DNA from: a virus
Taxonomy: Duplodnaviria > Caudoviricetes
DNA length: 64,000 nucleotides
Reading direction: 5' to 3' (one strand)
IMG/VR virus record: IMGVR_UViG_3300031867_000005
Location: 96,001-160,000 of that record
This document shows positions 38,945 through 43,655 of the stretch, one piece after another; positions within the stretch are counted from its first letter, which is position 1; each line of letters opens with the position of its first letter. The notes under the pieces were generated by a model. That model was not told the DNA's origin. It ran no database searches and worked only from the letters and a program-made list of their open reading frames with translations. Made by a program: the position numbers and the translations under genes.

Positions 38945-39065
38945 AAGATTCGTCAGCAATTCATATTTTCGTTATACATACCATATGATATATAGTTTAA
39001 CGGTAGAACATCTCATTGTAAATGAGAAGACTAAAGGTTCGACTCCTTCAGAAACGAATCTTGAA
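38945..39065 (+). ncRNA. Y-RNA-like element 1 enclosing the D, anticodon (GTA) and T arms of a Tyr-like tRNA
   Basis: AAGATTCGT-CAGCAAT...ACGAATCTT-GAA closing stem replaces the acceptor stem. Confidence 0.65.
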
Positions 39066-39068
39066 TTT

Positions 39069-39143
39069 CGCCCCATCGTCTATGGTTAGTTAGGACATCA
39101 CGCTTTCAATGTGAATAGACCAGAGCATCACTGGTTGGGGTGA
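39069..39143 (+). tRNA. tRNA-Glu(TTC)
   Basis: CGCCCCA/TGGGGTG; TCACG-CTTTCAA-TGTGA; atypical T-loop AGCATCA. Confidence 0.75.
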
Positions 39144-39147
39144 CTTA

Positions 39148-39269
39148 AAGATACATTCAGCAATTTTGTTTTAGAAGAAAAATTTTCCTTGTGTGCTGGT
39201 TAAAGTCTAGCCCGAACTTGTGCCGGTAGTTTAATTGGTAGAACAAGGATTCAAGAAAATGTATCTTGA
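39148..39269 (+). ncRNA. Y-RNA-like element 2 (circularly permuted tRNA mimic)
   Basis: AAGATACATT-CAGCAAT...AATGTATCTT-GA; T-arm GCTGG-TTAAAGT-CTAGC precedes D-arm GTTT-AATTGGTA-GAAC. Confidence 0.7.
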
Positions 39270-39292
39270 TTTAAATGTTAGTTAAAATAAAG

Positions 39293-39424
39293 GCCGCTTT
39301 GATGGAATAGGCAGACATAGGGGACTTACATGGAAAGCAGTCTTAATTAGCGGGGCAGCACCACTATCCATGACCAAAATCCCCTGAGAGAAATCTCGTG
39401 CGAGTTCAAGTCTCGCAAGCGGCA
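39293..39424 (+). tRNA. Split tRNA-Leu(TAA) with a 48-nt mini-tRNA insert (39329-39376)
   Basis: GGGGA-CTTA[insert]AAA-TCCCC; long variable arm; insert CATGGA...TCCATG-ACCA. Confidence 0.85.
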
Positions 39425-39449
39425 CTACAAAATTTAACAATAAAGAAAT

Positions 39450-39521
39450 CGGGATGTAGCCTAGCGGTTAGGCACTAGTTTTGGGAACTAGCCTAGGCAT
39501 GTTCGACTCATGTCATTCCGA
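39450..39521 (+). tRNA. tRNA-Pro(TGG)
   Basis: CGGGATG/CATTCCG; CTAGT-TTTGGGA-ACTAG. Confidence 0.9.
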
Positions 39522-39546
39522 TTAGCTCGAAAGAGCACTTTCATAG

Positions 39547-39698
39547 TATAACCTCCAAAGATATTATGAAAACATCATATAATTGCGGTATATGATGTAA
39601 GTCAGAAGACCAACTGACTTTAATCAAAATCGGGTGCATGACGTTACTACTTTCGAAGAGGGCATTAAAGACAAGGAAAAGTAGAATGAGAGGTTATA
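39547..39698 (+). ncRNA. Candidate multi-hairpin ncRNA
   Basis: TATAACCTC/GAGGTTATA closing stem around ACATCATATA/TATATGATGT, AAGTCAG/CTGACTT and CTACTTT/AAAGTAG stems. Confidence 0.45.
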
Positions 39699-39713
39699 AT
39701 TAACTTCTCAAAT

Positions 39714-39795
39714 CGCCGTATGGAGGAATTGGTATACTCGCAGCACTTAGAATGCTGTGCTGAAAGGCATCTCGGTTCAAGTCCGAGTACGGCGA
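39714..39795 (+). tRNA. tRNA-Leu(TAG)
   Basis: CGCCGTA/TACGGCG; CAGCA-CTTAGAA-TGCTG; long variable arm. Confidence 0.9.
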
Positions 39796-41430: not shown

Positions 41431-41481
41431 AAATTATGGTATAATTATTATTATAGTAAAAGAAAAAGGAGAGGATTAAGA

Positions 41482-41610
41482 ATGAGCAAGGAAAACAGAA
41501 TTATGAGATTGGAAGGGAGAATTAAAAAGTTGACAGATAACGGTGAAATGATGAATATTAGACTTATCAATAAGCTTAAGAGACAATTAAGAAAACTTAA
41601 AGGAGAGTAA
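41482..41610 (+). CDS. Small basic protein (42 aa)
   Basis: Promoter and GGAGG RBS; MSKENR...KLKRQLRKLKGE. Confidence 0.5.
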   Translation: MSKENRIMRLEGRIKKLTDNGEMMNIRLINKLKRQLRKLKGE

Positions 41611-41621
41611 TCTCCATTTAT

Positions 41622-41698
41622 GCCGTAGTAGCCAAATTGGATTAAAGGCACTTGCATTTTAAGCAAGAAATTTATTGGTTCGAGTCCAATCTGCGGTG
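41622..41698 (+). tRNA. tRNA with TTT anticodon (Lys-like, A32)
   Basis: GCCGTAG/CTGCGGT; CTTGC-ATTTTAA-GCAAG. Confidence 0.75.
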
Positions 41699-41703
41699 CT
41701 ATA

Positions 41704-41819
41704 AAGATAGGTTCAGCAATCAATTAAAAAAAAGGTTTGTATCATTGGTTCGATTCCAATCAATTCTTTTAGAATTGTCGCCTAGACGGTAAGGCAAAAT
41801 TTTTTAAACCTATCTTGAA
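41704..41819 (+). ncRNA. Y-RNA-like element 5 (YrlA-type permuted tRNA mimic)
   Basis: AAGATAGGTT-CAGCAAT...AACCTATCTT-GAA; order is T-arm (ATTGG-TTCGATT-CCAAT), loop-closed acceptor (CAATTCT-TTT-AGAATTG), D-arm (GCCT-AGACGGTA-AGGC). Confidence 0.8.
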
Positions 41820-41823
41820 TTTT

Positions 41824-41912
41824 GACAGATAAACTCAGACGGCTCTGAGCCTGTTCTTGAAAAACAGTGGTGCTATGAGGAGTGGCATAGAGGTCGGCAC
41901 TCTTGTCTGTCG
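41824..41912 (+). tRNA. tRNA-Ser(TGA)
   Basis: CTGTT-CTTGAAA-AACAG, long variable arm, GACAGA/TCTGTC acceptor. Confidence 0.75.
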
Positions 41913-41970
41913 TTTAAAGGTAAAATCCGCAAATAAAAAAAATTTTTATCTTGAAAAGGAGACTGATATT

Positions 41971-43479
41971 ATGAATTTTATTGATGCATTTGAAAGACAA
42001 GCTAATATGACTGAATCTGAAAAAGGCGGAGTTGTTTTTAAATCTGTCTCAAATCCACTTTTGGACTTATATTCTCATATTGGTGGAATGAGAAATAGAA
42101 ATGAGAATGATATTGTAAGTCAATGGTTGGAGGCAAGAATATTTGATAAGGAATTGGCAGATAACTTAATCCTCTATACTCGTGATTTTCGTAACACTGG
42201 TATTGGAGAACGAAAAATCGGTCGTATTCTTTTGAAAGAGCTTACAACAATTGACCCCCATAAAATTGAAAGAAACTTTCAAACAATTGTTGATGCCGGC
42301 AGATGGGATGATTTGTTTGTGTTTGTTGGAACTTCTGTCGAGAAAGAAATGTGGAACTTTATTGAAAAGCAATTACTTAGTGATGTTAAAGGAATGAAGA
42401 ATAAAGCTCCGATTTCTCTCTTAGGAAAGTGGCTGCCGTCTATCAATACCTCTAGCAAAGAAACACGTGCATTGGCTCGTAGAGCTTGTGTGCAGTTAAA
42501 TCTAACAGAACGCACTTACCGTAAAACTCTTTCTGCACTTCGTAAATACATTGGAGTTGTTGAGACTTTAATGTCAGCCGGCAAGTGGGATGAGATTAAC
42601 TTTGAAGCAGTTCCTTCAATTGCAATGTCTCGTTATATTAACACGTATAACAAACATTGTCAAGAAAGATTTGCAGAGTATAAGGCGGCTTTAGAAAAAG
42701 GCGAAGTAAAAGTTAATGCCGGAGCTTTAACACCAGCTGATATTTGTAAGAAATTCATTACTAATGGCGGCTATAAAGCATGGATAGATCATTGTTGGTA
42801 TGATGAGAAGCCAAGGGAAGTTAGGGGCGTTCTTGATGGAGTTGATATGGCTCAGTGGGGTGCTTTACCAAATTATGTAGAAGGGAATCAAGATGTTATC
42901 GTATTAAGTGATATTAGTGGGAGTATGGGAACTCCAAATTATGAACCGATTGCGGCCAGTGTTGGTTTGGCTACTTATTTCGCCCAGAGAAATAAGGGTG
43001 CTTATAAAAATCTTTTCATGGTATTTGCAAGTGACCCAGTTTTTATTAAAATCGAAGATATTTGGGATATTGAAAAATGTTTTTCTTACGTTTTAGGTCA
43101 ACAAATATCTTATTCAACAAATATGGATAGAGCCTTTAAAGCAATTTATGAAATGGCGCTTAAAACTCATGAAACACCTAAAGCAATTTGTGTTATAAGT
43201 GATGGAGAAATGGATAGATGGGTTCAAGATAAAGCTTCTGATTCAATTGTTTCTAAATGGAACAATGGTTTAATTGAAGCTGGACTTAATCCGATTAAAG
43301 TCATTTCTTGGAATGTGGCTAATCGTCATGATACAAATATTGCACCAGCTAGTGATTATGTTTCTTATTGTAGTGGTTTTTCTACAGGTTCTTTTGCGCA
43401 CTTCTCAAGTTTAATTAACAAAACAGCAGAAGAAGCGATGGTTGAGATTTTATCAAAGCCTCAATTTCAATGGAAGTAA
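41971..43479 (+). CDS. DUF2828 / TROVE(Ro60)-like protein with C-terminal vWA domain
   Basis: RDFRNTGIGERK, GRWDDL, LGKWLPS, YRKTLS, VPSIAM, SDISGSM (MIDAS), STNMD, ISDGEMD, WNV; RBS before ATG 41971. Confidence 0.8.
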   Translation: MNFIDAFERQANMTESEKGGVVFKSVSNPLLDLYSHIGGMRNRNENDIVSQWLEARIFDKELADNLILYTRDFRNTGIGERKIGRILLKELTTIDPHKIERNFQTIVDAGRWDDLFVFVGTSVEKEMWNFIEKQLLSDVKGMKNKAPISLLGKWLPSINTSSKETRALARRACVQLNLTERTYRKTLSALRKYIGVVETLMSAGKWDEINFEAVPSIAMSRYINTYNKHCQERFAEYKAALEKGEVKVNAGALTPADICKKFITNGGYKAWIDHCWYDEKPREVRGVLDGVDMAQWGALPNYVEGNQDVIVLSDISGSMGTPNYEPIAASVGLATYFAQRNKGAYKNLFMVFASDPVFIKIEDIWDIEKCFSYVLGQQISYSTNMDRAFKAIYEMALKTHETPKAICVISDGEMDRWVQDKASDSIVSKWNNGLIEAGLNPIKVISWNVANRHDTNIAPASDYVSYCSGFSTGSFAHFSSLINKTAEEAMVEILSKPQFQWK

Positions 43480-43512
43480 CAACTTGATGGCAATAGTCAT
43501 TGAGATATATTT

Positions 43513-43655
43513 GACCTTTTCAGCAACTCATTATATAATGATGAAAGAATGGTTTGAAGTTATCCCTAAACTTCGCTCATCTCCTAAAATCCCATGTGGT
43601 GAGGTCGAGTTACTATGATTCATCAGCATTTAAAATTTGAATAGGATTGAATCGT
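43513..43655 (+). ncRNA. Two further degenerate CAGCA-stem elements after the TROVE-like gene
   Basis: GACCTT-TT-CAGCAAC...GAGGTC and ATGATTCA-TCAGCAT...TGAATCGT. Confidence 0.45.

Follow-up and report, generated by a model that had tools for sequence, protein, structure and literature searches.

Bacteria and mycobacteriophages encode Ro60 (Rsr), a ring protein with TROVE and vWA domains, together with several small RNAs, YrlA and YrlB, that are situated within a few kb of the protein gene and on the same strand (PMC4201824; RF02553). These Y RNAs possess a closing stem formed by their two ends and a conserved single-stranded box just past its 5' strand, and YrlA includes a permuted tRNA mimic (PMC4201824). 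Thermus phage phiLo likewise encodes a Ro60 ring, with its partner RNAs Yrl1 and Yrl2 upstream of the gene (PMC12135203; PDB 9KOP, 9L5Y). Here we describe a comparable arrangement in a window of 64,000 nucleotides (bases 96001-160000) from the 178,685-bp IMG/VR record IMGVR_UViG_3300031867_000005 (Duplodnaviria; Caudoviricetes), a phage of rumen or gut origin, where eight modules, each closed by a stem that we call the handle, lie on the + strand within ~3 kb of a gene encoding a DUF2828 protein (41971-43479). In our assessment the window probably encodes the RNA partners of a Ro60-like protein, as a new branch of the Ro60/Y-RNA particle in which one copy, located in the leader of the protein gene, would serve self-regulation.

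The likeness to Ro60 and YrlA/YrlB is one of layout: several predicted small RNAs lie within a few kb of the protein gene on its strand, their ends form a closing stem followed by a single-stranded box, and two of them (39148 and 41704) carry a permuted tRNA mimic. Like Y RNAs in the broad sense, they have paired 5' and 3' ends that form a covarying terminal stem, which would be the binding site. In contrast to Ro60 (PMC4201824), the phage protein belongs to DUF2828/DUF7788 and not to TROVE, and is linked to Ro60 by fold and not by sequence profile. Unlike YrlA, the box is CAGCAA instead of GNCGAAN0-1G and comes with a third pair that is G:C almost without exception and with a 3' G; the enclosed segment is far more varied, comprising whole tRNA bodies, anticodon-arm-like hairpins or none; and the leader of the DUF2828 gene carries a handle copy at its ribosome-binding site. 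In phiLo, the RNAs were selected on a conserved CGAA in an internal bulge, without description of a CAGCAA handle, and their binding was shown by experiment (PMC12135203), whereas binding of the handle RNAs described here is predicted. New here are the leader copy and its generality, linkage controls in both directions, the contrast with canonical TROVE loci, and the presence of handles in named laboratory phages.

A handle RNA family linked to DUF2828 genes

The handle is a closing helix of 8-10 bp formed by the two ends of the RNA, in which the third pair is a near-invariant G:C; an unpaired CAGCAA box follows the 5' strand after 0-2 nt, and a single unpaired G follows the 3' strand. A first-pass annotation of this DNA had proposed five to seven copies of a stem marked by CAGCAA and ending in TCTTGA. 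All seven of its stems were recovered on the + strand by a strict scan of the whole genome for NNGRY, 3-7 nt, CAGC, at least eight consecutive pairs to a downstream partner and then G; an eighth copy, at 41917-41953 in the gene leader, had been missed. The CAGCAA mark held for most stems and the handle definition for all eight modules, with box variants at 39893 (CAGCTT), at 43615 (CAGCAT) and in the leader (CCGCAA), and the A after TCTTG proved not to be conserved in the family. Five of the eight modules were rated clear. The strict scan gave 12 matches in the 178,685-bp genome versus 1-6 in shuffles (mean ~2.4), and 7/12 were the previously noted elements, which all lie on the + strand in a 4.7-kb stretch surrounding the DUF2828 gene; AAGA-N4-8-CAGCAA occurred six times in the window against 0.94 expected. 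Stem pairing is kept despite sequence change (TTCGT/ACGAA, TACATT/AATGTA, TAGGTT/AACCTA), as the annotation had noted of the middle base pairs. We also built a covariance model (R1) from 35 short elements, comprising 34 of other phages and the 43615 element of the window; with filters off over 36.5-44.5 kb, its eight best matches were exactly the seven elements and the leader copy, all on the + strand. No family for these RNAs was found in Rfam 15 or in the literature searched, megablast of 38800-43700 against deposited phages returned no match, and Rfam at gathering threshold identified only tRNAs in the window, to which permissive E-values added nothing but a weak YrlA.

Upstream of the gene, handle RNA 1 (38945-39063; stem AAGATTCGT/ACGAATCTT, nine pairs, CAGCAA box, 3' G) folds around a Tyr(GTA)-like tRNA body of D arm, anticodon arm and T arm that lacks its own acceptor stem; Rfam tRNA matched 38993-39049 (42.6 bits) over model positions 8-63 only, in agreement with the acceptor-less cargo first proposed. 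Handle RNA 2 (39148-39268; stem AAGATACATT/AATGTATCTT, 10 pairs, CAGCAA box, fold z -2.58) and handle RNA 5 (41704-41817; stem AAGATAGGTT/AACCTATCTT, 10 pairs, CAGCAA box, fold z -3.1) both carry YrlA-like cargo, which bears out the permuted tRNAs ascribed to them: the latter folds into three hairpins (T arm, closed acceptor hairpin and D arm), and the former has the same parts with a poorly paired acceptor. Handle RNA 5 starts 4 nt past tRNA-Lys and scored 33.1 bits with R1 (E 0.0002). Handle RNA 3 (39803-39876), with stem AAGATGGTT/GATCATCTT including G-U pairs and a CAGCAA box, is a minimal form of 74 nt, as its fold confirmed (R1 27.9 bits, E 0.0025 over 64 kb). Handle RNA 4 (39893-40002; stem AAGACTTAA/TTGAGTCTT, nine pairs, CAGCTT box, fold z -3.2) encloses the whole tRNA-Ile(GAT)-like cloverleaf that had been read there (39915-39986; ARAGORN tRNA-Ile(gat), Rfam tRNA 49.6 bits), and matched R1 partially at 11.8 bits.

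Downstream of the gene lie two elements that the annotation had called degenerate copies. Handle RNA 7 (43615-43656; stem ATGATTCA/TGAATCGT, CAGCAT box, found by strict scan, R1 23.0 bits) is a minimal form of 42 nt, and a strong intrinsic terminator directly 3' of it (~43659-43700; fold of 43613-43705 z -3.66) fits a small RNA gene. Handle-like element 6 (43511-43609; stem TTGACCTT/GAGGTCGA with two G-U pairs, CAGCAA box) was found by the strict scan with eight pairs and by R1 at 24.2 bits with filters off, and is rated ambiguous because its 5' arm and box overlap a TTGACC-17-TATAAT promoter-like site and a terminator-like hairpin lies just upstream. The modules are predicted to give rise to discrete transcripts.

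The linkage proposed from this genome extended to other phages. We chose 78 viral loci only via the DUF2828 protein, with an alignment of 32 relatives and identity down to 26%; a single-protein query found no related loci, and the multi-homologue alignment was needed. Across these loci the strict scan found 155 matches on the gene strand versus 17 on the opposite one and 10-17 in shuffles, with a concentration within 500 nt upstream of the gene. At a cut-off of E at most 1, R1 matched 182 sites, 182/182 of them on the gene strand, and the best 150 of these were spread over 61/78 loci. In the best 150 matches 97% of cells were paired, a figure biased high since the alignment was fitted to the model and seeded by stems picked for pairing; 8/8 helix pairs changed on both sides, with a covariation score of 0.743 versus 0.216 in shuffles and at most 0.118 with the partner slid. 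Strand asymmetry and the negative controls are free of that bias. The family consensus was N-N-G-R-Y-N3-(N0-2)-CAGCAA ... N3-R-Y-C-N-N-G, with the box conserved as C150 A137 G150 C150 A123 A147 of 150, the 3' G in 148/150, and G3 and its C partner in 149/150 each, around covarying heads such as AAGAC/GTCTT, GTGAC/GTCAT, GGGAC/GTCCT, TAGAC/GTCTA and ACGAC/GTCGT. When whole records of five other phages (122-186 kb) were scanned with R1, each yielded 5-7 matches, and 20/22 matches with E <0.01 were situated no more than ~6 kb from the gene, on its strand. Conversely, R1 on T4, T5, phiKZ, CcrColossus and Bxz1 (1.0 Mb in total, no DUF2828) returned one partial match with E 0.6. Handles were also present at tRNA-free loci (e.g., L056), so they follow the DUF2828 gene and not tRNA clusters as such.

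With tblastn, a DUF2828 homologue was identified in 707 deposited phage records, often annotated as 'Ro-like RNA binding protein' or 'RNA-binding protein', and phages of Actinobacteria, Firmicutes and Proteobacteria have retained the same box. The DUF2828 protein is gp144 in Bacillus phage FADO and gp143 in Enterococcus EFDG1, and in Listeria A511 it is encoded at 23733-25253. Mycobacteriophage Whirlwind has three handles just downstream of the gene, with head TGGAC and a YrlA-style module, and FADO has six to seven upstream of it. Listeria A511 encodes three handles in the leader with AGGAA-type heads, Enterococcus EFDG1 encodes three, of which two have YrlA-like cargo, and FelixO1-like coliphage momo encodes four among its tRNAs (AGACC...GGTCTGG), of which one is YrlA-like. 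Rfam YrlA covers only the tRNA-like cores of some elements in these cultured phages, at 34-45 bits (maximum 44.9), below the cut-off. In the same regions we observed a sub-threshold match to ROOL RNA in A511 (L089, 3498-4049; 87.5 bits versus a gathering score of 99.1) between the tRNA cluster and the DUF2828 gene, and a tmRNA match in the EFDG1 tRNA region (L091, 1110-1460; 140.6 bits) that is not in the annotated features listed.

A contrast is provided by mycobacteriophage Bxz1, where a canonical TROVE gene is present and DUF2828 is absent. Upstream, its TROVE gene is preceded by a YrlA-like core (32.5 bits) together with two stems, after which come GCCGAGAG and GCCGAAGG, instances of the published GNCGAA motif; R1 gave no match at that locus. 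The layout of closing stem, single-stranded box and cargo is common to both branches, and the type of box goes with the branch of the protein.

The DUF2828 protein and the leader of its gene

The gene at 41971-43479 (+) encodes a protein of 502 aa that matched Pfam PF11443 (DUF2828, 3e-27) and PF25043 (DUF7788, 3e-14), as well as PHROG 850 'RNA-binding protein' (1.5e-96). Pfam returned only these two families and TROVE (PF05731) was not matched, and a sequence-profile search of PDB gave weak vWA matches and no Ro60; because sequence profiles miss Ro60, the kinship was reached by fold comparison only. The AlphaFold model (pLDDT 91) has the Ro60 fold that the annotation had suspected, with a HEAT-repeat ring and a vWA domain with MIDAS. 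In Foldseek, 12/12 top PDB matches were Ro60/TROVE over the full length (E 7e-8 to 1e-5), with TM values of 0.46-0.59 except for 2nvo at 0.31; the best was 9kop, the Ro60 of Thermus phage phiLo (E 7e-8, TM 0.55-0.59), and Xenopus Ro60 with RNA was also among the 12. In an alignment of 32 homologues, no variation is seen at MIDAS residues D314, S316, S318, T383 and D411 or at many basic residues of the ring. At least 1,947 significant relatives were found among 8,000 candidates scored from a large protein collection, and one relative is 88% identical. DUF2828 proteins occur commonly across phages, giant viruses, bacteria and eukaryotes; the DUF2828 clusters that the protein atlas returned were viral.

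The leader copy (41917-41953, +; R1 23.8 bits, E 0.017 over 64 kb) consists of stem AAGGTAAAA/TTTTATCTT, with TC between the 5' strand and the CCGCAA box, and its 3' G at 41953 ends 3 nt before the Shine-Dalgarno sequence AAGGAG (41956-41961) of the DUF2828 gene. A handle copy ends no more than 80 nt upstream of the start codon in at least 47/76 loci, and further loci missed by the pattern look similar by eye; the last bases of the leader handle often merge into the Shine-Dalgarno sequence (ATCTTGAAGGAG, ATCTTGGAGG, GTCATGGAGG). Autoregulatory operators that mimic the RNA target of a protein occur in ribosomal-protein operons, the MS2 coat protein operator, T4 gp32 and RegA. The DUF2828 leader resembles them in placing a presumed copy of the binding site at the ribosome-binding site of the protein's own mRNA, with the difference that here we infer regulation from position alone. 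By analogy, this would be the classic layout of a protein repressing its own translation through a mimic of its RNA target, and it would lend independent support to the handle as the site of the DUF2828 protein. The interval from handle RNA 5 to the leader copy contains a stem, GACAGA/TCTGTC with a G after it, at 41824-41911 (+); lacking a CAGC box and any model match, it was not counted as a ninth handle, and it may be a decayed copy.

We postulate that the ring and vWA domain of the DUF2828 protein would bind the handle as Ro60 binds the closing stem of a Y RNA, leaving the segment between the handle strands as exchangeable cargo. In the window this segment comprises two YrlA-style permuted mimics, a Tyr-like body, a whole Ile-like cloverleaf and minimal forms. 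The particle may thus display tRNA look-alikes, either as decoys for host tRNA-cutting enzymes or to recruit tRNA-handling enzymes to the ring, with the phage's own kinase/HD protein and two RNA ligases as candidates. Surplus protein on the leader copy would block translation, allowing the protein to regulate itself.

Cargo and neighbouring genes

Across 140 non-redundant elements of the family, T-arm-like hairpins occurred in 39 versus 1.7 in shuffles (~20-fold), and anticodon-arm-like hairpins in 45 versus ~16 expected, with UUU as the commonest 'anticodon'. The remaining variety is considerable: 71/140 elements are without any tRNA-like hairpin, and many members are minimal (33-65 nt). The tRNA-like domain of YrlA (T arm, closed acceptor and D arm) was found at 41704 and, less cleanly, at 39148, and in none of the other six modules. 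Filing the handle RNAs as Rfam YrlA (RF02553) was rejected on score: the best match in the window, 39174-39271 in handle RNA 2, reached 26.8 bits versus a gathering score of 69, no match was obtained at 41704, and handle RNAs overall score 26.8-44.9 bits. The GNCGAAN0-1G motif (PMC4201824) was not found in the window elements, where the CAGCAA box occupies its place. The YrlA comparison suggested by the annotation thus stood for the architecture of two cargoes and failed for score and motif. YrlA is also expected within 4 kb of Ro60 and on the same strand; position and strand fit here, but the neighbour is DUF2828 and not TROVE.

The window elements sit among tRNAs, often 4-16 nt from a tRNA end, in a + strand cluster spanning 36.7-41.7 kb (ARAGORN, Rfam tRNA). 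Elsewhere, tRNAs adjoin 57/78 loci, and over all 83 loci, cultured phages included, 351 tRNAs lie on the gene strand versus 2 on the other. Several features of this cluster (all +) merit description in their own right. A weak Rfam tRNA match (38865-38935; 35.3 bits), missed by ARAGORN, ends 9 nt before handle RNA 1. Between handle RNAs 1 and 2, the segment 39066-39146 folds into a cloverleaf whose anticodon loop reads CUUUCAA (UUC, Glu-like) and whose T loop, AGCAUCA, is unusual; neither ARAGORN nor Rfam called it. At 39293-39424, Rfam tRNA gave 38.9 bits over 132 nt with a long insert, again missed by ARAGORN. The tRNA-Ile(GAT)-like cloverleaf at 39915-39986 has C at position 33, where U is near-universal (Rfam alignment), and may be a mimic instead of a decoding tRNA. 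Two overlapping genes at 40079-41430, a PHROG 6892 member (function unknown) and a methyltransferase-like gene (PHROG 5172/799, NPPF motif), split the RNA cluster and may be an inserted cassette. Five near-identical TTGACT-17-TATAAT promoter-like sites (11/12), 190-300 nt apart, mark the start of the cluster (36490-37468), and a consensus scan identified another TTGACT-17-TATAAT site (11/12) at 41417-41445, upstream of tRNA-Lys, handle RNA 5, the leader copy and the DUF2828 gene.

On the same strand as the DUF2828 gene, and ~3-10 kb away from it, are a kinase/HD gene and two genes for RNA ligases. A polynucleotide-kinase-like P-loop and HD phosphohydrolase protein (31770-32669, +; Pfam AAA_33 1.7e-14, HD 1.8e-6; PHROG 505 'polynucleotide kinase') is a candidate for RNA end-healing, and the ligases are of the Rnl2 type (PF09414; 46094-47146, +; Pfam 1.5e-22; PHROG 548 'RNA ligase', 4e-43) and the T4 Rnl1 type (PF09511; 47772-48893, +; Pfam 2.3e-13; PHROG 562). 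RtcB was not found in this genome; in Listeria A511, RtcB and an RNA ligase are encoded downstream. Domains of BrxL normally belong to the bacterial BREX defence system. A phage gene at 51593-53014 (+) encodes BrxL-like Lon protease ATPase and BrxL N-terminal domains (Pfam 1e-103).

Alternative explanations and relatives beyond phages

The position of the elements between tRNAs, often 4-16 nt from a tRNA end, and the same-strand tRNAs near 57/78 loci would also suit processing or stability signals of a tRNA operon transcript (RNase sites or protective end-helices), with DUF2828 a mere frequent neighbour of tRNA clusters. We consider this unlikely, since the same box recurs across phages of Actinobacteria, Firmicutes and Proteobacteria, whose hosts have differing RNases; tRNA-rich phages without DUF2828 (T4, T5, Bxz1, phiKZ and CcrColossus) are without handles, tRNA-free loci with handles exist, and in most loci a handle copy abuts the gene's own Shine-Dalgarno sequence. 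A simpler reading of the handles as terminators was rejected, as a U tract is absent. The abutting copy also bears on a second proposal, that another protein (RRM, La-like or a host factor) binds the handle and DUF2828 acts on the cargo or on other RNAs, so that the linkage is functional and the contact indirect. A precedent exists in DdR-21, a Class I RNA of Dictyostelium, which is directly bound by the RRM protein Rnp1A (PMC7919456), but the loci share no other gene consistently, a leader copy beside the ribosome-binding site of its own gene is what recognition of the handle by the encoded protein itself would predict, and the canonical protein binds a box beside the closing stem, with the same layout and a different box in Bxz1. 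We rate this proposal as about equally improbable.

Much less credible to us is that the system is regulation only, in which the leader is an operator, the remaining copies act as sponges and so fix how much protein is free, and tRNA-like cargo has no decoy or repair role. The widespread leader copy, the many minimal members (33-65 nt) and the 71/140 elements without a tRNA-like hairpin are all compatible with it; the ~20-fold enrichment of T-arm-like hairpins over shuffles and the recurrence of YrlA-style modules in EFDG1, momo and Whirlwind speak against it, and the protein needs a function besides regulating itself. Several clustered copies per genome could also bring to mind a small mobile or repeated DNA element instead of functional RNAs, which we hold to be very improbable indeed: stems within one genome differ yet remain complementary, the strand bias is 182 to 0, and conservation is confined to the G:C pair, the box and the 3' G, which together argue for selection on RNA structure and not on DNA repeats. 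A reading of the stems as plain DNA repeats was rejected likewise, as they covary and do not repeat.

Some observations weigh against our preferred reading, in which the DUF2828 protein binds the handle and regulates itself through the leader. At -4.6 kcal/mol the leader stem of the window is weak and does not surpass shuffles, and it has CCGCAA as its box; the pairing percentage is biased high as described above. The handle is without the GNCGAA and bulged-helix features known as Ro60 contacts, so binding by the Ro60-like fold is proposed by analogy. Homologues of RNA ligase or kinase lie within 5 kb of the gene in only ~15/83 loci, and a repair role is therefore not general. In addition, the only direct binder shown for Class I RNA DdR-21 is Rnp1A, an RRM protein (PMC7919456).

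That comparison matters because the minimal handles of the window (42-74 nt) closely resemble the Class I RNAs of dictyostelids in their G-led stem and in the CAGCAA half of the Class I motif. Class I RNAs are 42-65 nt long and have a short covarying terminal stem with an invariant first G; the 11-nt motif CCUUACAGCAA comes next, a variable segment separates it from the 3' strand, and the RNA closes with a UG tail (Kjellin et al. 2021, PMC7919456), as in GTTGAC-CTTA-CAGCAA...GTCAAC-TG from the supplementary files of that paper. Differences are that the spacer from stem to CAGCAA is 4 nt in Class I RNAs versus 0-2 nt in phage handles, that the CCUUA half of the motif is not shared, and that the UG tail comes directly after the C partner (CUGU end), compared with CUGG in FelixO1-like phages and C-N-N-G in most others. 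Class I RNAs are also nuclear-encoded with their own DUSE promoter, and the authors report none outside Dictyostelia (PMC7919456). It is conceivable, though we think it doubtful, that phage handle RNAs and amoebal Class I RNAs are one ancient family with DUF2828 as the missing partner, forming a second Ro60/Y-RNA-like particle across viruses and cells, of which the phage version displays tRNA parts against tRNA-targeting defences and regulates itself via the leader handle.

A FelixO1-like coliphage, Bas63, already provides a phenotype. Its Ro60-like gene, gp130, is situated directly upstream of a tRNA array and is reported to counter the Ppl defence system; the authors surmise that Y RNAs are included among the 'tRNA genes', naming no RNA or motif (10.1101/2024.10.10.617714). 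From synteny and genus only, gp130 appears to be an orthologue of the momo DUF2828 gene; in momo, which is related to Bas63, the four CAGCAA-handle RNAs, one of them YrlA-like, lie among the tRNAs. A coliphage Ro60-like protein has already been tied to escape from Ppl, its RNAs going unrecognised (10.1101/2024.10.10.617714).

DUF2828 is a very large family of unknown function, and a defined RNA partner would make it a testable ribonucleoprotein. Handle RNAs are unannotated in the tRNA regions of Listeria A511, Enterococcus EFDG1, FelixO1-like coliphages, cluster-L mycobacteriophages and Bacillus FADO, and because these are laboratory phages, binding, knock-out and defence assays are within reach. 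The leader copy offers a simple regulatory model, and likeness to Class I could explain Dictyostelium RNAs that have been without a mechanism since 2004. For phages more broadly, exchangeable cargo made of tRNA parts suggests a general route by which tRNA damage may be decoyed or repaired.

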